64,000 nucleotides of DNA, from NCBI GenBank assembly GCA_020853395.1, contig JADYYY010000011.1, forward strand, positions 362,166 to 426,165, read 5' to 3'. The notes below the pieces were generated by a model. The model saw only the letters and a program-made list of their open reading frames with translations. It did not search any database and had not been told where the DNA came from. Positions 9,393-54,298 of this stretch are shown here, in pieces. The position numbers and the translations under genes were made by a program. Within the stretch, counting starts at the first letter, position 1. Every line of letters begins with the position of its first letter. The stretch is from Acidobacteriota bacterium (GTDB lineage Bacteria > Acidobacteriota > Vicinamibacteria > Vicinamibacterales > SCN-69-37).

Positions 9393-11981
9393 TCATTCTG
9401 CACCGTGCGGCTCGACGGCGAGCGGAGGCTCGTCGCCGCGGCGTCTGATGCGATAGCCTCCGGCGACGATCGACGAGACATCCGCGAGCGCCCGTGGCAG
9501 ACGTATCCCGCCTGGATAAACGAAGTAACGCGGCTCCCACTGCGGGTGGAACTTCTCCTTGAACTCGCGCAGGCCCTGGAAGTTGTAGAGCCGGCCGCCG
9601 TGCCGGTAGACGGCGCCGCCGAGCCGCGTCCACAGCGGCGTCACGGGGGACGGCGCGAAGCCGGGCATCGGGGCCATGCCGAGGCCAAGCCACCGGTAGT
9701 TGCTGGCTTGGGCCCAACGCAGCAGGTGCACGACGAGCGCCTCCATGACGTTCTTCGGCGCATCGGGCCGGCGGCGCATCAGATCGATCGCGAGCTCCAC
9801 GCCGTCCGCTCCGGGCCAGAGGTTGGCGAACGCCTCGATCCGGCCTCGCCGTTCGACGATCGCGATCGGAAACCGCGCGAGATACGCCGGATCGAACGCC
9901 CCGAGCGAAAACCCCTTCTCCGCGGCGTGCTTCGCGCCGAGCCAGGCGTCGGAGACTTCGCGAAGTTGGGACATCAGCGCCGCCACCTCGCCGGGCGGCG
10001 CCACACGGAACGTCCCGCCCTCTCTCGCAAGGCGCGAGATCGCCAGCCGATGACCGCGCGCCCGGCCGCCCTGCATCGTGAACGCCGCGAGGTCGACGCG
10101 CGCCTCGTGGCCGAGAGGGACGGACGTCAGCCCGAAGTCGGCGTAACGATGGAGGTACCTCGGGCCGACGTCGTAGAACACCGGCGTGCAGCCGTAGTCG
10201 TCACAGCGCTCGAGGAACTCGCGGATCAGCGCGCTCGCGGCCGCGGGCGGTCCAATCGGATCGCCCATCGCCGCCCAGGTGCGTGCGTGGGCGCCGTACA
10301 TCAGGAAGCCGGTGCGCGCGCGGTTGAAGATGACGCCCTTGTCGCCGAGGTACACGAGATACGCATGCGTGGCGGTGTCCGCGGCGATGATCCGCGCCGC
10401 GTCCTCCAGATCCGACGGCGCCGGACGCGCGATCTCGTGCGGCACCGTTGCGGCCAGGCGCAGCGCCGCGAAGACCAGCACGGCGATCCCGGCGCCGACC
10501 GACGCCCGCAGCGCGCGCGATGCGTCCGCCGGCCACGCGAACTGCCACCACAGCGCGTGCGAATACTCGACGTGCTTGAACGCGAACAGCCCGAGCCAGA
10601 CCGAGGCGATGAAGGCCGCGGCCACCGCCGCGATCCAGCCGGCGGAGAAGCGCGTCGCGAAGAGCGCGGCACGCCGGCCGAAGTCCGCGCGCGACCTCAC
10701 GAGCAGCGCGAGCAACACCCCGAGGACGATCGCGTCCTCGACGTCGACCCCCTTGAGCATCGATACGACGATGCCGATCGCCAGGCTCGCGATCGTGAGG
10801 CGGTAGGCCGCGTGGAGCCGACGGGCAATCGGCTGCGACAGCAGGATCAGCACCATGCCGGTGACGCCGCCGAGAAAGTGCGACGTCTCGACGACGCCGA
10901 GCGGCAGCAGCCGGGTGAGCAGCGCAAGCCGCGCCGCCTCGGAGGGCGTGGCGCCGGAGAACAGCAGCACGGCGCCGGCGAGGAAGACGAACGTCGCGAG
11001 CAGCTTCGGCGTGAGCCAGGCTTCGAGCCGTCCGAAGAGTGCGCGCGCCCGCGGCAGCGACGACCGGCGCTGCCGCACTTCGTCGGCGACCAGGCCGACG
11101 AGCGCGACGCCGAGCGGCAGCAGGTAGTAGACGAACCGGTACACGACGAGTGCGGGCAGGAGCCGATCGGACGGCACGTACGGCCCGAGCAGCACCACCA
11201 TCAGGCCGTCGAACACGCCAAGGCCGCCCGGCACGTGGCTGGCGAGCCCGATCAACTGCGCGCTCACGAACGCGGACGTCGTCACCACGAACGGCACCGA
11301 GCCGGCGGGCAGCAGGACGTGCAGCACGCTGGCGGCGAGCGTCCAATCGATCACCGAGGCGGCGAGCTGGCCGATCGCGATCGGCAGCCGAGGCAGCGGC
11401 ACCCGGAACTGCCCGACGGCGATCGGTGCCTCGCGGGCCGCGGCCGCACCGACGTACGCGATCGGGACGAGGAGCAGCAGCCATCCGGCCGGCTCGGCGA
11501 GCGTGCGCACGGCGTGCGGCAGATCGTCGGGCCAGGGGCGCGTGACGAGGCTGAGCCCGCCGAGAAAGAGCAGGCCCAGCCAGAAGGTGGCCGAGTACGC
11601 GAGGACGATGCGCGACAGCTCCTCGCCCGTGATGCCCCAGCGCGTGTAGAAGCGATAGCGCACGGAGGCGCCCGAGAGCACCGCGAAGCCGACGTTGTTG
11701 GCGATCGCGTAGGCGACGAACGATGCGAGCGCCACCTTCCAGCGGGTCAGCCGCCGGCCGACGTACGCCAGCGCGAGGAAGTCGTAGCTCGTCAGCACCG
11801 CGTAGTTCGACGCGGTGAAGAGCAGCGACAGCAGCACGGCCGACCGCGGCATGCTGCGCAGGTCCGCGTGGAGCGACGTCCATGTTGCGGTGTGGAGCTG
11901 GCGGCGAAGGACCTCGAGCGCGAGCACGAACAGCAGGAGCCCTGCGAGGGCTCCCAGCGTGCGCCGCGACGCTTCCTGCAT
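9393..11981 (-). CDS. mprF: bifunctional lysyl-phosphatidylglycerol flippase/synthetase MprF
   Basis: The protein is 862 aa. The N-terminal half is polytopic membrane sequence (LTSYDFLALAYVGRRL, VRYRFYTRWG). The C-terminal half is a soluble synthase domain (DLMRRRPDAPKNVMEAL, LYNFQGLREFKEKFHPQWEPRY), which is diagnostic of MprF. Confidence 0.9.
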   Translation of the reverse strand: MQEASRRTLGALAGLLLFVLALEVLRRQLHTATWTSLHADLRSMPRSAVLLSLLFTASNYAVLTSYDFLALAYVGRRLTRWKVALASFVAYAIANNVGFAVLSGASVRYRFYTRWGITGEELSRIVLAYSATFWLGLLFLGGLSLVTRPWPDDLPHAVRTLAEPAGWLLLLVPIAYVGAAAAREAPIAVGQFRVPLPRLPIAIGQLAASVIDWTLAASVLHVLLPAGSVPFVVTTSAFVSAQLIGLASHVPGGLGVFDGLMVVLLGPYVPSDRLLPALVVYRFVYYLLPLGVALVGLVADEVRQRRSSLPRARALFGRLEAWLTPKLLATFVFLAGAVLLFSGATPSEAARLALLTRLLPLGVVETSHFLGGVTGMVLILLSQPIARRLHAAYRLTIASLAIGIVVSMLKGVDVEDAIVLGVLLALLVRSRADFGRRAALFATRFSAGWIAAVAAAFIASVWLGLFAFKHVEYSHALWWQFAWPADASRALRASVGAGIAVLVFAALRLAATVPHEIARPAPSDLEDAARIIAADTATHAYLVYLGDKGVIFNRARTGFLMYGAHARTWAAMGDPIGPPAAASALIREFLERCDDYGCTPVFYDVGPRYLHRYADFGLTSVPLGHEARVDLAAFTMQGGRARGHRLAISRLAREGGTFRVAPPGEVAALMSQLREVSDAWLGAKHAAEKGFSLGAFDPAYLARFPIAIVERRGRIEAFANLWPGADGVELAIDLMRRRPDAPKNVMEALVVHLLRWAQASNYRWLGLGMAPMPGFAPSPVTPLWTRLGGAVYRHGGRLYNFQGLREFKEKFHPQWEPRYFVYPGGIRLPRALADVSSIVAGGYRIRRRGDEPPLAVEPHGAE

Positions 11982-12011: not shown

Positions 12012-14450
12012 CTACGGCGACCCTTCCTGCGACCCGCGCCACGCGACGCTCGTGGACTCACCCTGCGGCGCCCGTCCGCCGCCCGGAGCGGCGGTCGACG
12101 GCGACCACCGCCAGTCGCGGATCTCGGGCATGTCTTCGCCGTGCGCGCGAATGTAGTCGTGGTGCGCCTCGCGCTTCGCGCGCATCGCGCCGCGCACGCG
12201 GGCCGCGTCGGCCGCGGGCATCGGCACGCGATCGCAGACGTCCATCACGAGGTGGAAACGGTCGAGATCGTTCAGCACCGTCATGTCGAACGGCGTCGTG
12301 ATGGTGCCTTCCTCCTTGTAGCCGCGCACGTGCAGGTTCTGGTGGTTGGTGCGCCGGTACGCGAGCCGATGAACGAGCCACGGATAGCCGTGATACGCGA
12401 AGACGATCGGCCGGTCGGTCGTGAACAACGCGTCGAACTCGGCGTCGCTCAGCCCGTGGGGATGTTCGCGCGGCGGCTGCAGCCGCATGAGGTCGACGAC
12501 GTTCACGACGCGCACCTTGAGGCCTGGAAGCCACTCGCGCAAGAGTTGTGCGGCCGCGAGCGTTTCGAGCGTCGGCACGTCGCCGGCGCACGCCAGCACG
12601 ACGTCGGGGGCCTGCTCGCCGTCGTTCCCGGCCCAGTGCCAGGCGCCGATCCCCGCCGCGCAGTGCGCTTCGGCCTCGGCCATGGTCAGCCACTGCGGCG
12701 CGGGATGCTTGCCGGCGACGACGACGTTCACGTAGTGGCGGCTGCGGAGGCAGTGATCCATCACCGAGAGCAGGCAGTTCGCGTCGGGCGGCAGGTACAC
12801 CCGGATGATCTCGGCCTTCTTGTTCACGACGAGATCGATGAAGCCGGGATCCTGATGGGTGAAGCCGTTGTGATCCTGCCGCCACACGTGCGACGACAGC
12901 AGGATGTTGAGCGAGGCGATCGGCGCGCGCCACGGCAGCTCGCGGGTGACCTGCAGCCACTTCGCGTGCTGGTTGAACATCGAGTCGACGATGTGGATGA
13001 ACGCCTCGTACGAGTTGAACAGGCCGTGGCGGCCCGTCAGCAGGTAGCCTTCCAGCCAGCCCTGGCACTGGTGCTCGCTCAGCACCTCCATCACGCGCCC
13101 TTCATCGTCGAGGTGATCGTCGCCCGGCACGCGCGCGGCCATCCACTGGCGGTCCGTCACCTCGAACACGCGTCCGAGCTTGTTGGACGCGGTCTCGTCG
13201 GGACCGAAGATCCTGAAGTTGCGCGCGCCGGCGTTGGCGGCGACGACGTCGCGGAGCCACCCGCCGAGCGTCTCCGTGTCGGACGCCGTCGCCGCTCCGG
13301 GAGCTGGCAGGCTCACGCCGTAGCGCCGGTAGTCGGGCAGCGCGAGATCGCGGAGCAACAGGCCGCCGTTCGCGTGAGGGTTCGCACCCATGCGTCGCGT
13401 GCCGGCCGGCGCGAGCGCCTGCAGATCGGGAAAGAGCCGGCCGCCGGCGTCGAACAGCTCTTCCGGCCGATAGCTCCGCATCCACGTGTCGAGCACGGCG
13501 AGGTGCTCGGGATGATCGGCCGGCTGCGCGACCGGCACCTGGTGCGATCGCCAGGTCCCTTCGACCTGGAGCCCGTCGACGAAGCGCGGGCCGGTCCAGC
13601 CCTTCGGCGAGATCAGCACGATCATCGGCCAGCGTGGCCGGCTGCGATCGCCCTCGACGCGCGCCCGGTGCCGGATGCGCGCGATCTCGTCCATCACGCG
13701 GTCGAGCGCCGCCGCCATCGCCTCGTGCATCGGCTCGGGGTCCTCGCCTTCGACGACGTAGGGAACGTAGCCGTAGCCGCGGAACAGCGCGTCGAGCTCC
13801 TCACGCGTGATGCGCGCGAAGATCGTCGGGTTGGCAATCTTGTAGCCGTTGAGATGGAGAATCGGCAGCACGGCTCCGTCGCGCGCCGGGTTCAGGAACT
13901 TGTTGCCGTGCCACGCGGTGGCGAGCGGGCCCGTCTCGGCTTCGCCGTCGCCGACGACGCAGGCGGCGATGAGGCTCGGGTTGTCGAACACGGCGCCGAA
14001 CGCGTGGCTCAGCGAGTAGCCCAGCTCGCCGCCTTCGTGGATCGACCCGGGCGTCTCGGGCGCCGCGTGGCTCGGAATGCCGCCGGGAAACGAGAACTGC
14101 CTGAAGAGCGTCTTCAGGCCCGCGTCGTCGCGTGAGACGGCCGGATAGATCTCGCTGTAGGTCCCCTCGAGATACGTGTTCGCGACCACCGCCGGCCCGC
14201 CATGCCCTGGTCCGGAGAGGTAGATCATGTCCAGGTCGCGCTCGCGGATGACGCGGTTCAGGTGCACGTACACGAAGTTCTGCCCCGGCGTCGTGCCCCA
14301 GTGGCCGAGCAGGCGCGGCTTCACGTGCTCGAGCCGGAGCGGCTCTTTCAGGAGCGGGTTGTCGCGGAGGTAGATCTGCCCGACGGAGAGGTAGTTCGCC
14401 GCGCGCCAGTAGCGATCGAGGCGCGCGCGTTCGTCAGCCGACAGGGTCAT
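12012..14450 (-). CDS. xfp: phosphoketolase (xylulose-5-P/fructose-6-P phosphoketolase)
   Basis: [34 protein letters not shown]...[11 protein letters not shown]...GPGHGGPA...[15 protein letters not shown] are canonical Xfp signatures. The protein is 812 aa. Confidence 0.95.
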
Positions 14451-15613
14451 GCCCGTTCCTCCAGCACGCGGCAGGTCTGCCGCGCGACGACCAGGTTCTC
14501 GTTCGTACGCACGACGCGGACGTCAGGCCGCCCGCCGGGCGGGCTGATGAGATCCGCCGACGCGGCATTCGCCCGCGCGTCGAGACGAACCCCGAGGTGC
14601 TCGAGACCCTCGCAGACTTCCCGGCGGACGTCGGCCGATCGTTCGCCGATGCCGGCCGTGAACACGAGCGTGTCGAGCCCGCCGAGCGCAGCGGCGAACG
14701 CGCCGATCTGCTTGCGTACGTGGTAGCAGAACATCGTGATGGCGAGCGCCGCCTCGGGGCGCGTCGCGCGCTCGTCGAGCAGCGTCTTCATGTCGCCGCC
14801 CAGACCCGACACGCCGGCCAGCCCCGACTCGCGGTTCACGAGCGCATCGAGCGCCGGCGCGTCGTAGCGGTGCACCGTCGCGAGATGCAGCAGCACGCCG
14901 GGATCGAGATCGCCCGAGCGCGTGCTCATCATGATCCCGCCCGTCGGCGTCAGGCCCATCGTCGTGTCGATCGACACGCCATCGGCGACCGCCGCAAGAC
15001 TCGCGCCGTGGCCCAGGTGAGCAATGACCGCGCGGCCGAGCCGCTCGGCGCCGATGGTGTCGACCACGTACTCATACGAAAGACCGTGGAACCCGTACCG
15101 GCGGATGCCGCGGTCCCACAGCGTGCGCGGGAGCGCCAGCCGCCGTGCCCGCTCGGGCATGCGGTGATGGAAGGCCGTGTCGAAACAGGCGACTTGCGGG
15201 AGGGCAGGGAAGAGCGCGCTGGCGGCCGCGATGCCCGAGATCTCGGCGGGAAGGTGCAGCGGCGCGAAGGGAACGAGCGTCTCGAGCGTGGCCACGAGCG
15301 CCCGACCGAGGCGCGCCGGCCCGGTGTACGTCGCGCCGCCGAACACGACGCGATGGCCGATCGCCGCCGGCGCCGGCAACCTGGCCTCCCGGAGGTCCCG
15401 CACGGCAGCTTCGACGGCGGCACGGTGATCCGCAACCGGCCGCGATCGGCGCACGAGCTCGTTGCCGCGGCCATCCTCGAGCCAGGTGGTCGTCCCGCTT
15501 CCGCCGAGATCCTCGGCGGCGCCGGCCGCGAGCAGGGTGTCCGTGCGCCCGGCGACGTCGAAGAGCGAGAATTTCAGCGACGAGGAACCGCAGTTCAGGG
15601 CGAGAACGACCAT
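14447..15613 (-). CDS. ackA: acetate kinase
   Basis: [18 protein letters not shown] and later [12 protein letters not shown] and VFTAGIGE are acetate kinase motifs. The stop overlaps the xfp start (ATGA at 14447-14450). Confidence 0.95.
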
Positions 15614-20056: not shown

Positions 20057-21735
20057 GTCTGCAGCGTTCTCGAAAGGAACTGATCGCGGCAGACGTGCCG
20101 CTGGATCTTGCCGCTCGACGTACGCGGCAGCGTGCCGGGCCTGATCGGCAGGACGAGGTGCGGCTGGACGTCGTGGTGCTCGGCGACCCGGCGCCGGACG
20201 ACGGCTTCGAGCGCGGCGGTACCGGCGCGCCCGGCACTGCGCGCGACCTCCAGCACGATCACCACGCGCTCCACGTCGTCGACGTCCACCGGGAAGGCGG
20301 CGCACCCGTGCGTCCGGATCGCCGGATCGCACGCTTCGACCGTGTGCTCGATGTCGGCGGGATGATGGTTGCGGCCCGAGACGATGATGATGTCCTTCAC
20401 GCGGCCCGCGACGAACAGCTCGCCGTCGTGCACGAACCCGAGATCGCCCGTGCGCAGGAAGTGGCCGCCGGCATCGCCGGCCGCGCATGCCCGGAACGTG
20501 TCGCCGGACTCGCGCGGACGGCTCCAGTAGCCCGCGGCGACGTGCGGGCCGGCGACCCAGATTTCACCCACCCGATCGGGACCGCACGGTTGTGCGGTGG
20601 CGGGATCGACGATCGCGATGCGGCCGTCGCCGTAGGGCGTGCCGCAGCCGACGAGCGTGCGGGCCGGCGCGTCGCCGGCCGCGATGCGCACGCACCCGTG
20701 CGCGAGCGCGTCCGCGTCGAATGCGCGGGTGGTGACGGCGGCGTCGTGCCGGCAGCCCGCGGCCATGAGCGTCGCCTCCGCCAGCCCGTAGCACGGGCGC
20801 AGCGCCTGGCGGGAGAAACCTACCGGCGCGAAGCAGGTCGCGAACCGTTCGAGCGTGCGCGCGCGCACCGGCTCGGCTCCAACGTACGCGCGCAGCCAAT
20901 GGCTCAGGTCGAGGTCCGACATCTGCTCGGTCGTCACGCGCTCCGCGCAGAGGTCGTACGCGAACGTGGGCCCTCCGGACACCGCGGCGCGATAGCGCGA
21001 GATCGCTCGCAGCCATCGCACCGGCTTCATGAGGAAGGCTTCGGGCGGCATCAGCACGGACAGGTTGCCGGTGTACACGCCGCGCAGAGCGCCGGCCACG
21101 AGGCCCATGTCGTGAAAGGGCGGCAGCCAGCTCACGTGCGGGCTGGCTGCCGGCAGGTGCATGAACTGCTCCATCATCTGGAGGTTGGCCAGGAGACTGG
21201 CGTGCGTCACCATCACGCCCTTGGGCAGCGACGTCGACCCCGAGGTGTACTGCAGCAGCGCGACACCGTCGGAGGCGAGCGAGGGCGGCACCCACGCGGC
21301 GCCATCCGCGTCGAGCGTCCCGACCGGCAGCCAAGTCACCTCGGGCATCGCCGCTTCCAGCGCGGCGCGGTACCGATCCAGCACGGAGGTGACGCAGAGC
21401 GCGTAGCGCGGCGACGCGTCGCGTGCGATGCCGTGCAGCCGATCGACGTGGCGAGGCGCACGCGGTACCGGCACGGGCACGGCGATCGCGCCCGCGTAGA
21501 AGCAGCCGAACAGCGCGGCGACGAAGTCCAGGCCCGGCGGGCACAAGAGCAGGACGCGCTCGTCGCGCGCGCGGCGGCCGTGCAGGGCTGCCGCGATCTG
21601 CCGGGCCCGGGCATCCATGGCCCCGAAGCTGGCGGCGTCTTCGCGCTCGCCGTCCGGGAGGAAGACGAAGGCGCGCGCATCGCCGCGCTCGTCGGCGCGG
21701 GCTCTGACTAGGTCCGCGAACGTTCGCGCCTGCAT
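20041..21735 (-). CDS. fatty acyl-AMP ligase (FAAL-type adenylating enzyme)
   Basis: I trimmed track ORF 20041..22278 to the ATG at 21735 (MQARTFADLV). LQYTSGSTSLPKGVMVTHASLLANL, YGLAEATL, TGDLGF and SSGKIQR are present, with length and order typical of FadD32-like FAALs. The stop overlaps the T-C start by 16 nt. Confidence 0.9.
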   Translation of the reverse strand: MQARTFADLVRARADERGDARAFVFLPDGEREDAASFGAMDARARQIAAALHGRRARDERVLLLCPPGLDFVAALFGCFYAGAIAVPVPVPRAPRHVDRLHGIARDASPRYALCVTSVLDRYRAALEAAMPEVTWLPVGTLDADGAAWVPPSLASDGVALLQYTSGSTSLPKGVMVTHASLLANLQMMEQFMHLPAASPHVSWLPPFHDMGLVAGALRGVYTGNLSVLMPPEAFLMKPVRWLRAISRYRAAVSGGPTFAYDLCAERVTTEQMSDLDLSHWLRAYVGAEPVRARTLERFATCFAPVGFSRQALRPCYGLAEATLMAAGCRHDAAVTTRAFDADALAHGCVRIAAGDAPARTLVGCGTPYGDGRIAIVDPATAQPCGPDRVGEIWVAGPHVAAGYWSRPRESGDTFRACAAGDAGGHFLRTGDLGFVHDGELFVAGRVKDIIIVSGRNHHPADIEHTVEACDPAIRTHGCAAFPVDVDDVERVVIVLEVARSAGRAGTAALEAVVRRRVAEHHDVQPHLVLPIRPGTLPRTSSGKIQRHVCRDQFLSRTLQTWTTD

Positions 21736-41958: not shown

Positions 41959-42063
41959 TTCGGCCGGCGCCCGGACTTGATTGCCCGGAGGGGAAGGGCT
42001 AACGTGCCGCAGATCTGTTTCCCGCGCCGGCGCGACGCGTGCCGGCAAAGAAGTGAGGACGTC

Positions 42064-44058
42064 ATGAGAAGCCCCCTGCGTTCGCTGGCGGTTACGACGA
42101 CGGCTCTGGTGGCGATGGCCCTGGGGCTCCGCGCCGCCGATCCCGCCAATTTCAAACCCGACGGTTCGTTCAAAGGCTCGACGCTGGCCGGCTGGCACGT
42201 GGTCGGCGGCGCCGACTGGAGCGCGCAGAACGGCGAGCTCATCGGCCGGGCCAAGCCCGGCACGAACGGCGGATGGCTCGTCATGGACAAGAACTTTCAG
42301 GACGTGCAGCTCTACACGAACTTCAAGTGCATCGGCCAGTGCACGTCCGGCGTCCTGCTGCGCGCGCGCAAAACGCCCGACGGCGGCATGACGGGCGTGT
42401 TCGTCTCGCTCAGCGGCGACGACACCAACGCGTACGCGGTGACGCTCGATGCGACCGGTAAGGAGACCGGCCGTGAGCAGCTCGCCGCACCGGCTCGCGG
42501 CGGCGGTGCTGCCGGCGCCGCGCGTGGAGGTGCCGCGCCCGCCCGTGGCGCGGCGCCCGCGCCCGGCGCAGCCCCCGCACCTGCGGCACCGCCTCCCGCA
42601 CCCGCGCGAGGTACCCAGGTCGGCAGTTCGGGGCGCGGCCGGCCCACGCTGAAAGCCGGTGACTGGAACGAGGCCTACATCACGATCGCGACCGACGGGC
42701 CGCCGGCCGGCAGCCAGACGGGCCCGGTGCGCGTCGTGTCCACCTACACCGGCACGGTGCCGGTCGACGAGAAGAACGCGTACGGCTACGGTGCGATCGC
42801 CCTCTACGTCGGCGGCACGGGCGAAGCGCACTACAAGGACCTCGCGTGGAAAGACATGCTGTCGGTCGTCGAGCCGAAGGAGCAGGTCTCGCCGCGCTTC
42901 ACCATCCAGCGGTTGACGACGATGTACTACGGCTGGGGCGCGGCGACGGCGGACGTCAACCGTGACGGCAACCTCGACGTCATCTCCGGGCCGTTCTACT
43001 ACGCCGGCCCCAGCTTCACCGATCGCCGCCGCTATCGCGACGGCAATCTCTTCAATCCCGAAAACCAGTTCGCGCCCGACATGGTGAACCTGGCCGCCGA
43101 CTTCACCGGCGACGGCTGGCCCGACGTGCTCTCGTCGCTCGGCAATCGCCACATGGATCTCCACGTGAATCCGAAGGGCGAATCGCGCCGCTGGGACAAG
43201 TTCAGCGTGCTGCCGACGATCTCGTCAGAGATCGTCCTCATGAAGGATCTCGACCAGGACGGCAAGCCGGAAGTCGTGTTCGGCCAGGGCGCGGCCGGCG
43301 GCTACGCGTGGGCCAAGCCCGATCCAGTGAACCCGAGCGCCGTGTGGACGCCGCACGTGATCTCGAGCCCGGGTCAGGCCGTGAACGGCCATGGCCTCGG
43401 CGTCGGCGACGTCAACCACGACGGCCGCCTCGACATCGTCGTGCCGACGGGCTGGTACGAGCAGCCGGCGGCGGGGATCGGTGCCAGCCCGTGGACGTTC
43501 CACGAGGCGGAGCTGGGCGACCCGTCGACCTTCGGGAGCGGCGGCGGCGAAATGGGCGTCTACGACGTCAACGGTGACGGCCTGATCGACGTCGTCGCCG
43601 GCTCGGCGCACAACTGGGGCATGAACTGGTTCGAGCAGAAGAAGGACGGCACGTTCGTGCGCCACTCGATCGCGCAGAACTTCGCGACCGAGAACGCCGG
43701 CGGCGTGGTGTTCTCCGAATCGCACGCGGCACGCTTCGTGGACATGAACGGCGACAAGATCCCCGACATGATCACGGGCAAGCGGTACTGGTCGGAGGCG
43801 GGCAACAACACGCTGACGCACACCGATCCGTTCGGCGCGCCGGTGCTCTACATCTATCGGACGGTGCGCGATCCGAAAGCGCCCGGCGGCGCCCGTTTCG
43901 TGCCCGAGCTCGTCCACAACAAGTCGGGCATCGGCTCGTCGTTCGACGTCGTCGATCTCAACAAGGACGGACGGCCCGACATCGCGGTGGCGACGACGTT
44001 CGGGACGTACGTGTTCTTCGGCAAGCCTGCGGCGCCGGCGTCCACCGCCAAGCCGTAG
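42064..44058 (+). CDS. secreted DUF1080 (3-keto-disaccharide hydrolase-like) + FG-GAP/VCBS-repeat protein, paralog 1
   Basis: The ATG at 42064 follows GAGGA. The N-terminal domain reads GW..VGGADWSAQNGELIG...GGWLV.DK.F.DV.L...F.C. The C-terminal repeats read [59 protein letters not shown] and DLNKDGRPDI. Confidence 0.8.
   Translation: MRSPLRSLAVTTTALVAMALGLRAADPANFKPDGSFKGSTLAGWHVVGGADWSAQNGELIGRAKPGTNGGWLVMDKNFQDVQLYTNFKCIGQCTSGVLLRARKTPDGGMTGVFVSLSGDDTNAYAVTLDATGKETGREQLAAPARGGGAAGAARGGAAPARGAAPAPGAAPAPAAPPPAPARGTQVGSSGRGRPTLKAGDWNEAYITIATDGPPAGSQTGPVRVVSTYTGTVPVDEKNAYGYGAIALYVGGTGEAHYKDLAWKDMLSVVEPKEQVSPRFTIQRLTTMYYGWGAATADVNRDGNLDVISGPFYYAGPSFTDRRRYRDGNLFNPENQFAPDMVNLAADFTGDGWPDVLSSLGNRHMDLHVNPKGESRRWDKFSVLPTISSEIVLMKDLDQDGKPEVVFGQGAAGGYAWAKPDPVNPSAVWTPHVISSPGQAVNGHGLGVGDVNHDGRLDIVVPTGWYEQPAAGIGASPWTFHEAELGDPSTFGSGGGEMGVYDVNGDGLIDVVAGSAHNWGMNWFEQKKDGTFVRHSIAQNFATENAGGVVFSESHAARFVDMNGDKIPDMITGKRYWSEAGNNTLTHTDPFGAPVLYIYRTVRDPKAPGGARFVPELVHNKSGIGSSFDVVDLNKDGRPDIAVATTFGTYVFFGKPAAPASTAKP
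42484..42645 (+). repeat. low-complexity G/A/P/R-rich coding insert inside the DUF1080 domain of paralog 1
   Basis: The translation is AAPARGGGAAGAARGGAAPARGAAPAPGAAPAPAAPPPAPARGTQVGSSGRGRP. At DNA level this is GCN/CCN/GGN-rich simple sequence. Confidence 0.7.
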
Positions 44059-44167: not shown

Positions 44168-45277
44168 ATGCACGTCCGCTCGGCCGCCTCTCCAGTCCTT
44201 CCGCTCGTCGTCGCTCTTGCTGGGCTGACCGCGTGCGCCCACGTCTCGCCCGCGGCCCAGGCCGGGCACGCGCCTCGCGCCGCGGTGTGCCGCGCTCTCG
44301 TCGACGCGACTGGACGACCTGCGGATGCATCGATGCAATGGCACGAGACGGCCCGACCCGGACGCGCGAGTGCGGCACTCGCGGCCGCGTGCGCGACCGT
44401 TGGTCCAAGCGTGTACCAGGCGCCTGCCGCCAGCGCGGGCGGACGCGCGATCGACCGGCTGGCAATCGTCAGTTGGAACGTCCACGTGGGTGGCGGCGAC
44501 CTTGCCGCGCTGGTCGCCGGGCTGCGAGAAGGACGGTTGACCGGCGGTGAGCCGGTGGCGGACTTCGTCCTGCTGCTTCACGAGGCATTCCGCGGCGGGG
44601 CCGGCGTTCCGGCCGATCTTCCGGCGGGCGTGCCGGTGCCGAGACGCATCGCTCCTGGACCGCCATCGGGTCGTCGGCTCGACGTCGTCCGCACGGCGCG
44701 CGCGTTGGGGCTCGGCGTGTTCTACGTGCCGTCGATGCGCAACGGCGATGACGAGAAGCCGGCCGAGGATCGGGGGAACGCCATCCTGTCGACGTTGCCG
44801 TTCGACGCGCTCGCCGGCGTCGAGCTGCCGCACGCGCGTCAGCGTCGCGTCGCGATCAGCGCCGTCGTGCATGGATTCGACGCTGATGCGCGTCCGTGGC
44901 GACTGCGTCTCGTCAGCGCTCATCTGAACGCGACGGCAGGCCCCGATCGGCTCTGGATCTTCGCGAGCGGCCTGCGCGAACGGCAGGCGCGGCACCTGAT
45001 CGACGCGCTGGGCGAGGATGCCACGCCCACCGTCGTCGGCTCCGACTTGAACACGTGGGCCGGCGGGTTTCGCGAGCCGGCGTTCGTCGAGCTGCAGCGG
45101 CGGTTTCCCGAGACCGACCCTGCCGCTGGCGGCGCGATGTTCCGCGGCGGACCTCGACTGGACTTCGTGTTCTTTGGCTTGCCGGCGTCATGGCAGGGCC
45201 GCGTGCGGCCGTTGGCCGATCGCTTCGGGTCCGACCATCATCCCCTTGTCGGCTGGATCAGCGTCCGCGACGGTTGA
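44168..45277 (+). CDS. endonuclease/exonuclease/phosphatase (EEP) family lipoprotein
   Basis: The lipobox is LAGLTAC. The EEP motifs are IVSWNVHVGGGD, EDRGNAILS, LRLVSAHL, VVGSDLN and the C-terminal GSDHHPLV. Confidence 0.75.
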   Translation: MHVRSAASPVLPLVVALAGLTACAHVSPAAQAGHAPRAAVCRALVDATGRPADASMQWHETARPGRASAALAAACATVGPSVYQAPAASAGGRAIDRLAIVSWNVHVGGGDLAALVAGLREGRLTGGEPVADFVLLLHEAFRGGAGVPADLPAGVPVPRRIAPGPPSGRRLDVVRTARALGLGVFYVPSMRNGDDEKPAEDRGNAILSTLPFDALAGVELPHARQRRVAISAVVHGFDADARPWRLRLVSAHLNATAGPDRLWIFASGLRERQARHLIDALGEDATPTVVGSDLNTWAGGFREPAFVELQRRFPETDPAAGGAMFRGGPRLDFVFFGLPASWQGRVRPLADRFGSDHHPLVGWISVRDG

Positions 45278-45404: not shown

Positions 45405-45746
45405 CTACGACGCGGTGGCGACGCCGTGAACGCGTGCGTTCAGCTCGCCGATGGCCGCCTCTGACTCGGCGTTCTCGACCAGGAACACCCACCTGCTGAC
45501 GTACGCGAGCTGCGGGCCGTCAGCCTCGAAGCAGCCCACGCATCGAGCGCCGAGAATCACGGACGACCCGCCGTGTACGAACTCGAAGGCCATCGGCATT
45601 TGCAGCAGCACGGCGGCGTCGGTCTCGATGTCGAAACCCGCTGGCGTCAAGTTGCGGCAGCGCAGCACGCGGAGCGGCCGTCCGATGGCCGTGAGGCGGA
45701 GGCACTCGAGACCGGCCATGGCGCGGCGAGCAGATGTGTCGTGCAT
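45405..45746 (-). CDS. small hypothetical protein, possibly PilZ-like
   Basis: This is the lower part of track ORF 45405..46061, with the ATG at 45746. Third-codon-position GC is high and composition is normal. RNLTPAGFDIET resembles the PilZ (D/N)xSxxG motif, but the RxxxR motif is degenerate (ARRAMAG). Confidence 0.35.
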   Translation of the reverse strand: MHDTSARRAMAGLECLRLTAIGRPLRVLRCRNLTPAGFDIETDAAVLLQMPMAFEFVHGGSSVILGARCVGCFEADGPQLAYVSRWVFLVENAESEAAIGELNARVHGVATAS

Positions 45747-46229
45747 GTCGACGTCCTGCCCTTGAAGTAGGCAAGCGGCGTGCCTGCGTCGACGTTGAGC
45801 GGTCCGGCGGCCCAGGTGACGAGCTGCCGCCGGCGCCCGCGGAATACTCCACGGGCGCGCGGAAACTGCAGCGATCGGTCGGCGCGTCGGCCGACCGGCG
45901 CGGCCAGCGGACGCCGATACCGGGGTTGTCGTGCCACTTGGCGCCCGGCGGACGCGTGCGGTGGCCTTGGTCCACATCTGGACGGCTGCCGCGCCAGGAG
46001 CACGGGCGGAGGTCGCCGTCGATCCGCGTGTCGACGACGGCAGCGGGCCACGTCGTCGCACCCGTCAAGGGCGAGATCGAACGTACCGTCGGCGCCCTCG
46101 TCGATGGATCTCGAACGCGGTGCCGGGGTGTCGACGCCGAGCGCGCGCGGCACGGCGATCGCCTCGTGGCGAACGGCAGCCGTCTCTTCAGTTGATCTCC
46201 TAATGGAATGTGCTGTAGCCTGCAGTCGG

Positions 46230-47333
46230 ATGGCTAATGAAGCCGCGCGGCTGCGGACGAAGCCCCGGGTCGCCGAGGCGCTGGACGTCCTCGTGCTGCA
46301 CCTGCTGGAGCGATCCGGGCCGCTGCACGGCTATCGGATCGCGGCGCTGCTCGAGCGGGTCGTCGGACCAGAGGATGCCACGTTCGATTTGCCCACGCTG
46401 TACTCGGCGATCCTGCAGCAGAAGCAGCGAGGGCTGCTGAGCGCCACGTTCGCCGAGTGCGAGGGCCGCAGGGTCAAAACCTACGCCATCACCGCGCGAG
46501 GGCGCCGATACCTGAAGAGCGCGCGCATCGCATGGGAACGAAGCGCATCGCTGCTCGGCGGCCTGCTCGAGGAGCAGCGGAGGCAGCGCCGTGAGCTGGA
46601 GCTCGCTCGAGAGGTCCAGACCCATTTCTTCTCGTCGCTCGCCCCGGCGGCGAGCCTCGGGCTCGACGTCGCCGGACGCTATCGCCCGGCGCGTCACGTC
46701 GGCGGCGACTACTACGACATCATTCGGCTGTCGGACACGGCGGTCGCGCTGACCCTGGGCGACGTGGCGGGCAAGGGCCTGTTCGCCGCGCTGCTGATGG
46801 CCACGCTCAGGGCGTTCGTGCGCAGTCAGCGGAGCGGCGCCGAGCAGCTCGGGGCGCTCATGTCGCGGCTCAATCATCTGCTGCGCGAGAGCTGCCCGCG
46901 CGATCGATTCGCGACCCTGTTCTACGCCGTGTACGAGTCGACCGGTGCCGACCTCGTGTACGTGAACGCCGGACATCACCCGCCGCTGCTGCTCGATCCG
47001 GCCGCCGGCGCAGGCCTCCTCCGTCTCGATCGCGGCGGCCCCGTGCTCGGGCTCCTGCCGAACTGCACGTACGAGACGGGGAGCGCGCCCTTCGCCGCAG
47101 GAAGCGTGCTGGTTGCCTACACCGACGGCGTGACGGAGGCTTGCGACGCGAACGGATCGGACTGGGGAGAAGAGCGGTTGGCTGCGGCCATCCGCCGCGG
47201 GTGCACGGCGTCCGCCGATGCGCTCGCCGACTGGCTGTTGTCGGACGTGACGCGATTCATGGCAGACGGACATCAAGAGGACGACATGACCTTACTCGTG
47301 GCTCGCAGAGTCGGCGCGGTGGACGAGCGATGA
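46230..47333 (+). CDS. fusion protein: PadR-type winged-helix domain + PP2C/SpoIIE-family serine phosphatase domain
   Basis: I trimmed track ORF 45780.. to the ATG at 46230 (alternative 46203). The PadR-like region is LDVLVLHLLERSGPLHGYRIAALLE...LYSAILQQKQRGLL...KTYAITARGRRYL. The SpoIIE motifs are VGGDYYDI, LGDVAGKGL, VAYTDGVTEA and EDDMTLLVAR. Confidence 0.8.
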   Translation: MANEAARLRTKPRVAEALDVLVLHLLERSGPLHGYRIAALLERVVGPEDATFDLPTLYSAILQQKQRGLLSATFAECEGRRVKTYAITARGRRYLKSARIAWERSASLLGGLLEEQRRQRRELELAREVQTHFFSSLAPAASLGLDVAGRYRPARHVGGDYYDIIRLSDTAVALTLGDVAGKGLFAALLMATLRAFVRSQRSGAEQLGALMSRLNHLLRESCPRDRFATLFYAVYESTGADLVYVNAGHHPPLLLDPAAGAGLLRLDRGGPVLGLLPNCTYETGSAPFAAGSVLVAYTDGVTEACDANGSDWGEERLAAAIRRGCTASADALADWLLSDVTRFMADGHQEDDMTLLVARRVGAVDER

Positions 47334-47677
47334 CGCCGCAAGAGAGGAGCAAGACGGAAGTGCTGCACGGGACCCTCGATCTCATGGTCCTGCAGACGTT
47401 GGCCACGCTCGGGCCGCTTCACGGGTACGCGATCGCCGCGCGGCTCGAGCAAGTGTCGTCCGGCGCCCTTCGTCTCAACATGGGCTCGCTCTATCCGGGT
47501 CTCGTCCGGCTGCAGCAACGCGGGCTCGTGCGCGCGCGCTGGGCGGTCACCGAGAACAACCGGCGCGCACGGTTCTACGAGATCACCGCCAGCGGACGCC
47601 GGCAGCTCGCCACCGAGAAGGCCGAGTGGCATCGCATGACCGACATCATGCGGAGCCTGTTGGAGCCGGAACGCTGA
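47330..47677 (+). CDS. PadR family transcriptional regulator (acidobacterial PadR type)
   Basis: The ATG at 47330 overlaps the preceding stop (ATGA). LHGTLDLMVLQTLATLGPLHGYAIAARLEQ...LYPGLVRLQQRGLV...RFYEITASGRRQL supports the call. The protein is 115 aa. Confidence 0.85.
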   Translation: MTPQERSKTEVLHGTLDLMVLQTLATLGPLHGYAIAARLEQVSSGALRLNMGSLYPGLVRLQQRGLVRARWAVTENNRRARFYEITASGRRQLATEKAEWHRMTDIMRSLLEPER

Positions 47678-47698
47678 GCGGCGAGCAGCACCTGGGGG

Positions 47699-50407
47699 AT
47701 GGACACCATGGGCACACTGCGCGAGTGGGTCAGCCGGCTCTGGGGCGTGCTGTCGCCCGACCGGCCGGATCGGGAGCTGGAAGAGGAGCTGCGGCAGCAT
47801 CTCGAGTTCGCGGCCGAGGACGCCCGCCGTCGCGGGCAGACGTCCGAGCGCGACGTGCGGGCGATTCGGTTGCGCGCCGGCGGAATCACGCAGGCCATGG
47901 AAGCGGTGCGCGCCCAGCGCCGCATCCCGACGATCGAGTCCGTCGTGCGCGACGTGCGGTACGGCCTGCGGCAGCTTCGGCTCAGCCCCGGCTTCACGAT
48001 CGTGGCCCTGCTGTCGCTGGCGCTCGGAATCGGCGCCAACTCGGCGATGTTCCAGTTGCTCAATGCGGTTCGGCTGCGCCCGCTCCCGGTCGCCCGGCCC
48101 GCGGAACTGGCGGTCGTGACGCGCTCGGGCTCGTTCTACGGCGCCGGCTGGTCGACGGGGCGCAACGAGTCGTTCACGTTCGCCCAGTACCAGGAGATCT
48201 CGCGGCGCCAGCAGGCGTTCTCGGGCCTGCTGGCGTTCAGCACGCGGCGCTTCAACCTGAGCAGCGGTGGCCAGGTGCGCTACGCGGAAGGTCTGTACGT
48301 GAGCCCGAACTTCCTCGAGGTCCTGGGCGTGAGGCCCCAGCTCGGCGCCTGGCCGGCCGACGTCGACCCGCGCGACTGCGGGCGCGAGGGCGTGCTCTTG
48401 AACGATGGATTCTGGCGACGGGAGTTCGGCGCCGATCCTGGCGTGATCGGCCGCACGATGACGCTCGACGGACGACGGCTTCCCGTGCTCGCGGTCGCGC
48501 CGCCGGCATTCTACGGCGTCGAGCCCGCCTATCGCTTCGACATCGCGGTGCCGCTCTGCGCCGACGCCGGCGCTGACCGGGAGAGCCGCCTCTCCCTGAA
48601 GTGGGCCTGGTGGCTCACGATGATGGGCCGGCTCGAGCCGGGCTGGACGGTGGAGCGCGCCGCGCGTCACCTCCACGAGATCTCGCCGGCGGTCTTCGCG
48701 GAAACCGTGCCCGAGACGTACCGGCCCGACGTGGCGGCGCGCTATCTCGAGAACCGCCTGGGCGCCGCGTCGGCGCAGGCCGGCGTGTCGTCGCTGCGCG
48801 AGCAGTACGAAGGCGCGCTCTGGATCCTGCTGGGCATGACCGCGCTCGTCCTGTGCATTGCGTGCGCGAACCTGGCGAATCTGCTGCTCGCGCGCGCGGC
48901 CGCCCGCGAGCGCGAGGCCGTGCTGCGCCAGGCGCTCGGCGCCTCTCGCGGCCGCCTCGTCCGCCAATTGATGTGCGAGAGCCTGATCCTCGCCGTCGCC
49001 GGCGCTCTCATCGGCACCTGGTTCGCACACGCCTCGAGCCGTGCGCTCGTCGCGTTCCTCAGCGGGTCCGAGGGCGGCCTCTACCTCCCGATCGATCTCG
49101 ACTGGCGCGTGTTGGGATTCACGATCGCCCTCGCCGGCGGGACGTGCGTGCTGTTCGGCCTCGGGCCCGCCCTGCGGGCGACGCTCGTGAGCCCGGCGAG
49201 CGTGATGCACGGCGGCCGCGGCCCGACGTCGCTGGCCGACCGCCACACGTTTCGCCGAGGCCTCGTGGTCTTCCAGGTCGCGCTGTCGTTCGTGCTCCTC
49301 TCCGGCGCCCTGCTGTTCGGCCGAAGCCTGCGGAATCTGACGACGGCCGAAACCGGCATGGTGACGGAGGGTGTGCTCGCGGCCACCGTCACGACAGAGG
49401 CCGACAAGGGGCGGCGGCCTCTCCTGTTCAACGACATCGAAGACCGGGTTCGGCGCCTCCCCGACGTCGCGGCGGCCGCCATCGTGCTCTATCCGCCCTT
49501 CTCGCCAGCCGGATGGAACCAAGAGGTCTACGTCGGATCGGACAAGGCGAAGACGGCGCTCGCGTGGCTCAACCGCGTCAGCCCGCACTACTTCGAGACG
49601 ATGGGCACGCCGATTGTCGCCGGGCGCGACTTCTCGGCGCAGGATCGCGCCGGCACGCCGAACGTCGCCATCGTCAACCAGGCCTTCGCGCGCGCCGTGT
49701 TCGGCGACGCGAACCCGATCGGCGCCCGCTTCGAGTACGAAGCCCAGGCCGGCGAGCAGGACCCGGTCTTCACCGTCGTCGGGCTCGTCGGCAACACGAA
49801 GTACGGCGCGATCCGCGAGAGCACGCGGCTCATCGCGTTCCTTCCCGTTGCGCAGGACGTGCCGATGTCCGATCGGCTCACCGTCGTGCTGCGGGCGCGC
49901 GGCGCGATGAGCAGCGCGCAGGCGGGCGTCGAGCGCGAAGTCGCATCGGTCGATCCACGGGCGCTGATCGAGTTCAAGCCGCTCGACGTGCAGATCGCCG
50001 ACTCGCTGGCCCGCGAGCGGCTCGTCGCGAGCCTGTCAGGCGGGTTCGGCGCGCTGGCCGTCGTGCTCGCGACCCTGGGACTCTACGGCGTGATGGCGTA
50101 CATCATCGCGCGGCGCCGCTCCGAGATCGGTGTCCGCATGGCGCTCGGCGCCGGCCGTGTCGACATCCTCGCGCTCGTGTTCGGCGAGGCGAGCCGCCTG
50201 ATGGTGATCGGCATCGTCCTGGGCGTCGGCGGCAGCCTCCTCGTCCTGCGCTCCGCTACGTCCCTGCTGTTCGGCCTGTCGCCCACCGATCCGGCAACGC
50301 TCGCAATCGCGGCCGTGTGCCTGGCCATCACCGGCCTCATCGCCGTGCTCTTGCCCACGAGGAACGCCGTCCGCACGGATCCCGCGGTGGTGCTGCGCGG
50401 AGACTGA
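47699..50407 (+). CDS. duplicated FtsX/MacB-type permease (ADOP, acidobacterial duplicated orphan permease type)
   Basis: The protein is 902 aa. The characteristic N-terminal leader is LREWVSRLWGVLSPDRPDRELEEELRQHLE. Two MacB-like periplasmic plus FtsX 4-TM modules follow. No ATPase gene is adjacent. It lies 21 nt after the PadR gene. Confidence 0.9.
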   Translation: MDTMGTLREWVSRLWGVLSPDRPDRELEEELRQHLEFAAEDARRRGQTSERDVRAIRLRAGGITQAMEAVRAQRRIPTIESVVRDVRYGLRQLRLSPGFTIVALLSLALGIGANSAMFQLLNAVRLRPLPVARPAELAVVTRSGSFYGAGWSTGRNESFTFAQYQEISRRQQAFSGLLAFSTRRFNLSSGGQVRYAEGLYVSPNFLEVLGVRPQLGAWPADVDPRDCGREGVLLNDGFWRREFGADPGVIGRTMTLDGRRLPVLAVAPPAFYGVEPAYRFDIAVPLCADAGADRESRLSLKWAWWLTMMGRLEPGWTVERAARHLHEISPAVFAETVPETYRPDVAARYLENRLGAASAQAGVSSLREQYEGALWILLGMTALVLCIACANLANLLLARAAAREREAVLRQALGASRGRLVRQLMCESLILAVAGALIGTWFAHASSRALVAFLSGSEGGLYLPIDLDWRVLGFTIALAGGTCVLFGLGPALRATLVSPASVMHGGRGPTSLADRHTFRRGLVVFQVALSFVLLSGALLFGRSLRNLTTAETGMVTEGVLAATVTTEADKGRRPLLFNDIEDRVRRLPDVAAAAIVLYPPFSPAGWNQEVYVGSDKAKTALAWLNRVSPHYFETMGTPIVAGRDFSAQDRAGTPNVAIVNQAFARAVFGDANPIGARFEYEAQAGEQDPVFTVVGLVGNTKYGAIRESTRLIAFLPVAQDVPMSDRLTVVLRARGAMSSAQAGVEREVASVDPRALIEFKPLDVQIADSLARERLVASLSGGFGALAVVLATLGLYGVMAYIIARRRSEIGVRMALGAGRVDILALVFGEASRLMVIGIVLGVGGSLLVLRSATSLLFGLSPTDPATLAIAAVCLAITGLIAVLLPTRNAVRTDPAVVLRGD

Positions 50408-50647: not shown

Positions 50648-53958
<3,311 letters not shown>

Positions 53959-54211: not shown

Positions 54212-54298
54212 TGGTGCGGAAGGAGAGATTCGAACTCTCACGGTCTTGCGACCGCCAGCCCCTCAAGCTGGTGCGTCTGCCAGTTCCGCCACTTCCGC
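54212..54298 (-). tRNA. tRNA-Leu (anticodon GAG), class II with a long variable arm, CCA encoded
   Basis: The reverse complement reads GCGGAAGTGGCGGAACTGGCAGACGCACCAGCTTGAGGGGCTGGCGGTCGCAAGACCGTGAGAGTTCGAATCTCTCCTTCCGCACCA. The acceptor stem is GCGGAAG/CTTCCGC. The anticodon stem is CCAGC/GCTGG with loop TTGAGGG. The variable arm is CGGTC-GCAA-GACCG. The T arm is GAGAG-TTCGAAT-CTCTC. Confidence 0.9.

Follow-up and report, generated by a model that had tools for sequence, protein, structure and literature searches.

RsbU-type phosphatases of the PPM family are the closest described relatives of the protein considered here. In these enzymes, an N-terminal regulatory domain is followed by a dimerising helical linker, which crosses metastably and has polar residues in its core, and the input domains named for the class are PAS, REC, GAF, HAMP and RsbU-N, a list from which a DNA-binding domain is absent (PMC12143880). 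Studied members include RsbU of B. subtilis, Rv1364c of M. tuberculosis, and RssB (REC-PP2C; 3F7A/3EQ2) and SiaA of P. aeruginosa. In a stretch of 64,000 nucleotides from an Acidobacteriota bacterium (contig JADYYY010000011.1, positions 362,166 to 426,165; hereafter the window, with positions counted from its first letter), the plus-strand gene at 46230-47333 encodes a protein of 367 aa in which a PadR domain is joined through a predicted helix to a SpoIIE/RsbU-type PP2C domain. Like the RsbU-type enzymes, which are its best sequence and fold matches, this PadR-PP2C fusion belongs to the PF07228 family and has a presumably dimeric N-terminal domain that a long helical linker connects to a PP2C. 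Unlike them, it has the DNA-binding PadR domain as its input, and no STAS, RsbW or RsbT gene lies nearby, the conserved neighbor being an orphan permease.

A second point of comparison is found among PadR regulators. The HAAS domain, whose hallmark is a three-helix core with the third helix kinked at a GxP motif, was defined together with the proposal that HAAS-PadR dyads serve as an alternative to two-component systems; the dyad is itself a computational proposal without biochemical proof (PMC11237479). In the dyads as in the window, a winged helix-turn-helix (wHTH) protein of PadR subfamily 2 (PadR-s2) stands beside a membrane protein with an N-terminal cytoplasmic helical domain, the proposed partner, and a permease from A. 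capsulatum of the same kind as in the window, an acidobacterial duplicated orphan permease (ADOP), is among the published examples. Unlike in the dyads, a second PadR domain is present in the window and bears a PP2C enzyme. Also comparable are LmrR (LmrR-LmrCD) and bcPadR2, short PadR proteins that dimerise by a single C-terminal helix, have a conserved Trp and are encoded just upstream of a transporter. The fusion departs from these PadR-s2 repressors in that its C-terminal helix continues into a linker and a phosphatase, and in that the recognition helix is altered (YSAILQQK) in the group of homologs to which it belongs, called clade A below.

Few gene families of soil Acidobacteria have expanded as much as the ADOPs and their PadR partners. 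To our knowledge these two have no known function, and the literature on them is scant. A phosphatase wired into one PadR-ADOP sub-family would provide a testable output for ADOPs. We propose, at a probability of roughly 0.45 and hence tentatively, that the PadR head of the fusion is a dimeric input or targeting domain, which shares its target with the stand-alone PadR encoded next to it and drives the PP2C through the linker.

A Conserved Three-Part Protein

The first-pass annotation of this DNA, made from the letters alone, had recognized a complete PadR domain and a complete SpoIIE/PP2C domain in the product of 46230-47333, and a scan with hidden Markov models (HMMs) agreed on both. Pfam PadR (PF03551) matched residues 22-96 at 35.9 bits (cut-off 27; 38.4 bits for the head alone), and Pfam SpoIIE (PF07228) matched residues 169-360 at 164 bits (cut-off 25). 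The PadR-s2 head spans residues 14-112 (46269-46565) and comprises a wHTH and a C-terminal dimerisation helix with Trp102. The helical linker, LEEQRRQRRELELAREVQTHFF, follows at residues 113-134 (46566-46631), and the PPM catalytic domain occupies residues 135-360 (46632-47309). The motifs on which the PP2C assignment had been based, GGDYYD, DVAGKG, YTDGVTEA and DDMTLL, all occur, and a 29-sequence alignment of homologs shows no variation at their key residues (D160, D163, D178, G181, K182, G183, D299, G300, D351, and D352). A profile of the family matched the short PadR structures 5DYM, 9QBC and LmrR 3F8B over positions 9-116, and in its PP2C part matched Rv1364c, P. aeruginosa RssB and SpoIIE. 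The fusion gene encodes a real and conserved three-part protein, composed of a short-type (subfamily 2) PadR, a helix and an RsbU/SpoIIE-type PP2C.

PadR-s2 proteins are marked by the motifs YGYE(I/L), EGT(L/I)YPxLxRLE and G(P/R)RKYYx(L/I)TxxG, along with a Trp in the single C-terminal helix (PMC3506622). The clade-A head keeps HGYRI, the wing GRRVKTYAITARG and W102, and keeps the helix-3 motif in part (TLYSAILQQK, with P, R, L, and E replaced); the heads of a second group, clade B, keep the helix-3 motif in full. The window head is 42% identical to the adjacent stand-alone PadR over 101 aa, C-terminal helix included, and scored 51.6 bits against TIGR03433 (padR_acidobact), under the curated cut-off of 101.8. 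Comparison among loci backs the start at 46230. An in-frame ATG further upstream, at 46203, was rejected, as a stop codon closes its frame in the seven other loci.

The chance that two genes were joined by an assembly or gene-calling error is negligible. The identical protein was found on an independent contig of 8.5 kb (L005, the same DNA as the window), about 30 clusters of homologs share its length and junction, with none split between PadR and PP2C, and the GC content at third codon positions is 0.85 in the head and in the PP2C alike; together these observations rule the artefact out.

In an AlphaFold2 (AF2) monomer model of the fusion (mean predicted local distance difference test, pLDDT, of 79.6), the head forms a normal wHTH, and a single unbroken helix at residues 89-134 runs from the PadR C-terminal helix to the PP2C, with pLDDT values of 46-64 over most of its length and low confidence at residues 104-112. 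Foldseek matched the PP2C part to SiaA-PP2C (6K4E), RssB (3F79/3F7A), Rv1364c (3KE6) and SpoIIE (5UCG) with E values of ~1e-13 to 1e-12, and the linker region aligns with that of P. aeruginosa RssB (3EQ2). A heptad pattern runs along the helix, with L95, A98, W102, S105, L109, L112, Q116, Q119, L123, A126, Q130, and F133 at a/d positions; conserved polar (Gln/His) residues occupy a/d positions 116, 119 and 130, a likeness to the polar core of the RsbU-type linkers. Residues E122, E124, R127, V129, and Q130 are invariant in the 29-sequence alignment. Within clade A, the linker is the most conserved segment, at 86% identity, compared with 75% for the head and 72% for the PP2C; by this measure head, linker and PP2C appear to be under similar or stronger constraint.

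W102 is kept in 28 of the 29 sequences, at a heptad a position where the continuous helix begins, which bears on a reading of the fusion as a ligand-gated phosphatase. As in LmrR, a small molecule would be held between W102 and W102′ of the C-terminal helices of the PadR dimer; because the C-terminal helix runs into the linker, its binding would act directly as a switch on the PP2C. In LmrR, drugs bind at the corresponding Trp, a residue that PadR-s2 proteins conserve (PMC3506622), and the head profile matches LmrR structures. However, the other PadR-s2 structures have this Trp buried within a closed interface, where it is not believed to bind ligands (PMC3506622), and ligand gating accounts for neither the conservation of the permease prefix nor the GntR parallel, both described below. 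We consider this explanation improbable.

Rarity and Origin of the Architecture

Homologs were sought among 5.8 billion clustered proteins (clusters at 90% identity). About 30 clusters, drawn from JGI, ENA, NCBI and Logan assemblies, carry both PadR and SpoIIE, with lengths of 342-404 aa and identities of 41-75%. The architecture is far from common: a search of 1.84 billion representatives at 50% identity gave 136,686 SpoIIE-like hits, and of the best 150 of these, three matched over the full length. The alignment separates clade A (at least 67% identical to the window protein), clade B (42-47%), and a third lineage, clade C (P0056 and P0129). Within clades A or B there are no indels at the junction, and the length of the helix is constant. 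The PP2C of clade B has an identity of 0.59 to that of GntR- and GAF-headed proteins, as against 0.47 to that of clade A, which suggests that the PadR-PP2C architecture arose, or that its heads were acquired or exchanged, more than once. In a crude neighbor-joining tree, the three PadR-headed lineages fall apart.

A profile search of genome contigs with the full-length alignment (PP2C-motif patterns) returned 80 loci among the matches listed, all encoding long sensor-PP2C proteins and none with a PadR or GntR head. A search of metagenome contigs with clade-A heads found three short contigs, which supplied the promoter alignment and the gene order of locus L089 discussed below. JGI annotates these fusion homologs as RsbU only, and a literature search covering PadR, GntR or wHTH domains fused to SpoIIE/PP2C, as well as ADOPs, found no description of PadR- or GntR-headed fusions. 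Among RsbU-type PPM phosphatases, the fusion stands out by an input domain of a class new to them and by a partner that is likewise new. For the PPM field, a DNA-binding domain would join the exchangeable N-terminal inputs and offer a natural test of the coiled-coil linker model.

Gene Order of the Cassette

The fusion gene is followed on the plus strand by a gene for a module-specific stand-alone PadR of 115 aa (47330-47677; TIGR03433, 131.1 bits, cut-off 101.8) and then by an ADOP, a duplicated permease of the FtsX/MacB type (47699-50407, likely start 47708; TIGR03434, 799.6 bits, cut-off 622.3), in which Pfam finds MacB_PCD and FtsX twice each. The overlap of the fusion stop codon with the PadR start codon (ATGA, 47330-47333), noted at first pass, is real. 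It is not kept at other loci, where gaps of 5-7 nt take its place, but the tight same-strand spacing is. The ADOP follows directly, as had been described, but the distance of 21 nt given for it holds for a start at 47699, and its start is more probably the ATG at 47708 (899 aa), because homologs begin MxGxLREW and the gene call in L005 agrees. Both ATGs are in frame, and a GGGGGA run 9-10 nt upstream also favors 47708.

The PadR had been called standard and its pairing with the ADOP canonical. The pair does pass both NCBIfam cut-offs, but the PadR belongs to a specific sub-family. Stand-alone PadR proteins are 82-88% identical among clade-A loci and 70-72% identical to that of the clade-B locus L004, compared with ~31% to a generic ADOP-linked PadR. 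Together with the permease prefix described below, sequence comparison sets the PadR-ADOP pair of the window apart as a distinct sub-type, not a generic pair, and this also distinguishes it from the published HAAS-PadR dyads. The fusion heads are 49-61% identical to the module PadR in clade B and 30-38% in clade A.

An ADOP adjoins the fusion at the window/L005, L001, L003, L089, L090, L091-94, L004, P0029, and L096, in three gene orders. In clade A, the order is fusion, 115-aa PadR, ADOP at the window/L005, L090 and L091-94; the P0018 contig, of the same type, stops in an unidentified open reading frame (ORF) right after the PadR. At the clade-A loci L001, L003, and L089, the fusion is followed by the ADOP with no stand-alone PadR between them. 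In clade B (L004 and P0029 contigs), an ADOP on the minus strand diverges from a plus-strand fusion, which is followed by a PadR on the minus strand; at a further clade-B locus, L002, neither an ADOP nor a PadR lies within 10 kb. In the third lineage (L096), the ADOP precedes the fusion. Since the flanking genes differ at every locus, the cassette consists of the fusion, usually the PadR, and the ADOP. As to whether homologs always sit upstream of a PadR-ADOP pair, an ADOP is adjacent nearly everywhere, but the order varies, the PadR is sometimes absent, and L002 has no ADOP. The initial suggestion of an additional regulatory layer on PadR-ADOP modules fits the recurrence of fusion, PadR and ADOP together, in three orders and across lineages only 42-47% identical; the mechanisms offered along with it are not supported in the form given.

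These mechanisms were that the head heterodimerises with the neighboring PadR, which it might thereby titrate, or that the PP2C removes phosphate from that PadR or from a permease loop. Head and neighbor are paralogous over the whole PadR, dimerisation helix included (42% in the window and up to 61% in clade B), and their genes are translationally coupled or lie 5-7 nt apart, as would suit a heterodimer. However, an obligatory heterodimer is unlikely because L001, L003, and L089 lack a stand-alone PadR between fusion and ADOP, and in the GntR-headed proteins described below the likeness of head and neighbor stops at the end of the wHTH, with the dimerisation region outside it. Nothing supports dephosphorylation: neither the nine loci with gene tables nor the window ORFs scanned contain a Ser/Thr kinase gene, and we know of no description of PadR phosphorylation. 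Taken together, we give heterodimerisation and dephosphorylation little credence.

A Permease Prefix That Tracks the Fusion

The ADOP of the window begins with a module-specific cytoplasmic prefix of the perm_prefix_1 type (residues 6-75; 47714-47923, plus strand). ADOPs linked to clade A are mosaic: their prefixes are 81-96% identical to each other, whereas their bodies (47924-50407 in the window) are 26-37% identical, the level of paralogs, and only the window and L090 share an orthologous permease body (78%). With an HMM of the prefix, full-length prefixes of clade-A- and clade-B-linked ADOPs scored 122-141 bits, that of L089, where the prefix is cut off at the contig end, 107 bits, and that of the clade-C-linked ADOP of L096 30 bits, compared with 13 bits for a generic PadR-ADOP pair in L091. 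Conservation of the prefix extends to L001, L003, and L089, at which no adjacent protein other than the fusion has a PadR domain. The ADOP feature that tracks the fusion is this N-terminal cytoplasmic prefix, with the body interchangeable. As a conserved prefix sits on unlike bodies, it travels with the fusion/PadR cassette onto different ADOP bodies, and the mosaic ADOPs point to the prefix as a signaling interface.

In its predicted third helix, the prefix has an invariant G62 (GG in most sequences) in place of the GxP motif of HAAS domains. A homolog search with the 84-aa prefix returned six fragments, and the window's own ADOP was not among them. At L001 (11095-16591), the fusion is followed at once, and without a PadR, by two tandem ADOPs that have nearly the same prefix. 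A frameshift or a long-read assembly error divides the second into ORFs of 615 aa and 284 aa, and its prefix and the stretch just after it are nearly the same as in the single ADOP of L091.

A Parallel Family With GntR Heads

Many homology search hits of ~370 aa have a related linker and PP2C but GntR as the head (e.g., P0071 and P0095). These GntR(wHTH)-SpoIIE fusions (L006:8001-10931 and L095:5001-8711), of ~373-380 aa, outnumber the PadR type. They resemble the PadR-headed proteins in length and in linker and PP2C (46% identity to clade A, 59% to clade B), and also in arrangement, with a fusion gene, then a stand-alone paralogous regulator gene overlapping it by 4 nt, then a transporter. 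In two long contigs the order is GntR fusion, GntR (4-nt overlap), ABC ATPase, and small proteins without a Pfam match. They differ in having another wHTH family as head, in being linked to an ABC transporter with an ATPase rather than to an orphan ADOP, and in that the head is far closer to the neighboring regulator. GntR-type heads are 76-78% identical to the wHTH of the neighboring GntR; the likeness ends with the wHTH, and the dimerisation region is not covered. That the arrangement recurs with GntR and ABC transporters, and probably originated several times independently, suggests that selection has favored a link between transporter-associated repressors and phospho-signaling. PadR- and GntR-headed PP2C proteins might then form one unrecognized class, in which the repressor-type wHTH receives a signal from the cytoplasmic domain of a transporter, be it a HAAS-type prefix or an equivalent, and turns it into Ser/Thr-phosphatase activity, so that one sensor would feed a transcriptional and a post-translational (partner-switching) branch. 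We regard this generalization as speculative and on balance unlikely; if true, it would be the first functional handle on the large, uncharacterized ADOP family.

A Putative Promoter and a Candidate Operator

About 50 nt before the ATG at 46230 are conserved in eight clade-A loci, and the sequence further upstream is dissimilar. Within the conserved part, on the plus strand, lies a conserved promoter-like element (46192-46221), with a putative -35 box TTGATC (46192-46197), an 18-nt spacer and a putative -10 box TAGCCT (46216-46221). A generic scan for sigma-70 promoters and terminators called nothing; it missed this element because the -10 box agrees with the consensus at only three of six positions. 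The ATG lies 8 nt past the -10 box and has no Shine-Dalgarno sequence, so the cassette mRNA probably has little or no leader. A direct repeat on the same strand (46200-46242), CTAATGGAA at 46200-46208 and CTAATGAAG at 46234-46242, flanks the -10 box and the start codon and is a candidate operator. In the whole window, CTAATGRAR has exact matches only at 46200 and 46234. Clade-A loci, those lacking a stand-alone PadR among them, again have copies spaced 33-34 nt apart, one of the two being off by one base in L003 and L090, and the divergent region between ADOP and fusion in the clade-B locus L004 has a copy with one mismatch. An Rfam scan of the window matched a tRNA only, and hence no known RNA family lies in the 480-nt upstream region. 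The interval 45747-46229 has no convincing coding signal on either strand. Its first ~430 nt (45747-46180) are dissimilar to the other loci and unusually long for this genome, and may be a gene remnant.

These repeats underlie the main rival to our proposal, in which the fusion is an operator-bound regulator, a DNA-bound co-repressor or second repressor whose head binds the operator of the stand-alone PadR, taken to be the AATGGA-type repeats over the -10 element and the start codon, while the PP2C acts as a sensor (e.g., of Mn2+ or of a phospho-partner) or is gated by DNA, the ADOP prefix being uninvolved. The PadR-s2 DNA contacts are largely kept, with Y35, Y58, R80, R83, and Y85 invariant or nearly so, and in clade-B heads both the recognition helix and the wing remain fully canonical, as in the module PadR. 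The identity of 76-78% between GntR-type heads and neighboring repressors, over exactly the wHTH, points the same way, as does the conservation in eight loci of the 50-nt promoter with CTAATGRAR, even where no stand-alone PadR is adjacent. However, a purely DNA-bound role leaves unexplained why prefixes travel with the fusion at 81-96% identity on non-orthologous permease bodies. In clade A, moreover, the part of helix 3 predicted to contact bases has changed from YPxLxRLE to YSAILQQK (the stand-alone PadR of the window has YPGLVRLQ), and the invariant catalytic residues point to the PP2C as an enzymatic output and not a mere sensor. The second copy of the repeat falls within codons 2-4, so that it may be conserved in part for the sake of the protein sequence. 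We judge the operator-bound regulator unlikely as a full account, though it is the rival to be taken most seriously.

A Proposed Signaling Mechanism

Under our proposal, the head would act as a phosphatase input, in the manner of REC, GAF, PAS and RsbU-N in other PPM phosphatases, and not primarily as a second repressor. The target common to the head and the stand-alone PadR would be the ADOP prefix, the AATGGA-type repeats at the cassette promoter, or both. The prefix would pass on a change in the state of the permease to the head dimer and the linker, and their re-ordering would in turn switch the PP2C dimer on or off. One signal could thereby have two outputs, a transcriptional one through the stand-alone PadR and a phosphatase one through the fusion. 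As substrate, the most likely candidate would be a phospho-Ser/Thr partner-switching protein whose gene lies elsewhere in the genome.

A number of observations weigh against this proposal. The fold of the prefix is one concern. The label HAAS for the class of the prefix derives from an entry in Table S4 of PMC11237479 for a different ADOP, that of A. capsulatum. All eight prefixes tested match NCBIfam NF038403 (perm_prefix_1), the window prefix at 27.1 bits, just under the cut-off of 30, but the AF2 model of the prefix, with helices at 7-18, 24-44, and 50-74, is weak (pLDDT 66). The prefix had no match in Pfam (E<=10), a profile search of PDB sequences gave nothing significant, and neither did Foldseek with the weak AF2 model. 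Genomic context is another concern. The locus L002 is the sole one without an ADOP. As was already reported for STAS and RsbW-like genes at first pass, the ~45 window ORFs compared with Pfam (small ORFs only in part) yielded no STAS, RsbW-like or Ser/Thr kinase gene, and none of STAS, RsbW or kinase genes occurs in the nine loci with PadR-type fusions that have gene tables. Finally, the head keeps the DNA-contact motifs of PadR (HGY, LY, and the wing R..Y) and may simply bind DNA, because the promoter repeats persist where the stand-alone PadR is absent. The GntR parallel has no known HAAS-like partner, and because the GntR head shares with its neighbor the DNA-binding wHTH, a shared operator is favored there over a shared protein partner. 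The proposed input role of the head and a DNA-bound co-repressor role are compatible and do not exclude each other.

Other Features of the Window

The cassette block is flanked by genes for paralogous FG-GAP/3-keto-disaccharide-hydrolase proteins of 693 aa (41977-44058) and 694 aa (50648-52732), 48% identical over 477 aa. Between the first of these and the cassette lie an ORF of 369 aa (44168-45277), which by eye has the look of an endonuclease/exonuclease/phosphatase fold and has no Pfam match, and a minus-strand ORF of 113 aa of no known kind (45405-45746). Further upstream, a stand-alone protein with peptidyl carrier and condensation domains, as in nonribosomal peptide synthetases, lies near a minus-strand cytochrome P450 (18416-23048), and the stretch between them (~20489-21734) has no Pfam assignment. 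An MprF-like lysyl-phosphatidylglycerol synthase gene (9393-11981, minus strand) adjoins a phosphoketolase-acetate kinase pair (12012-15613, minus strand). The minus-strand gene at 34641-35381 matches a response-regulator receiver in its C-terminal half only; its N-terminal ~120 residues have no match, and its start codon is uncertain. The one RNA gene detected in the window is that of tRNA-Leu(GAG), at 54212-54298 on the minus strand.

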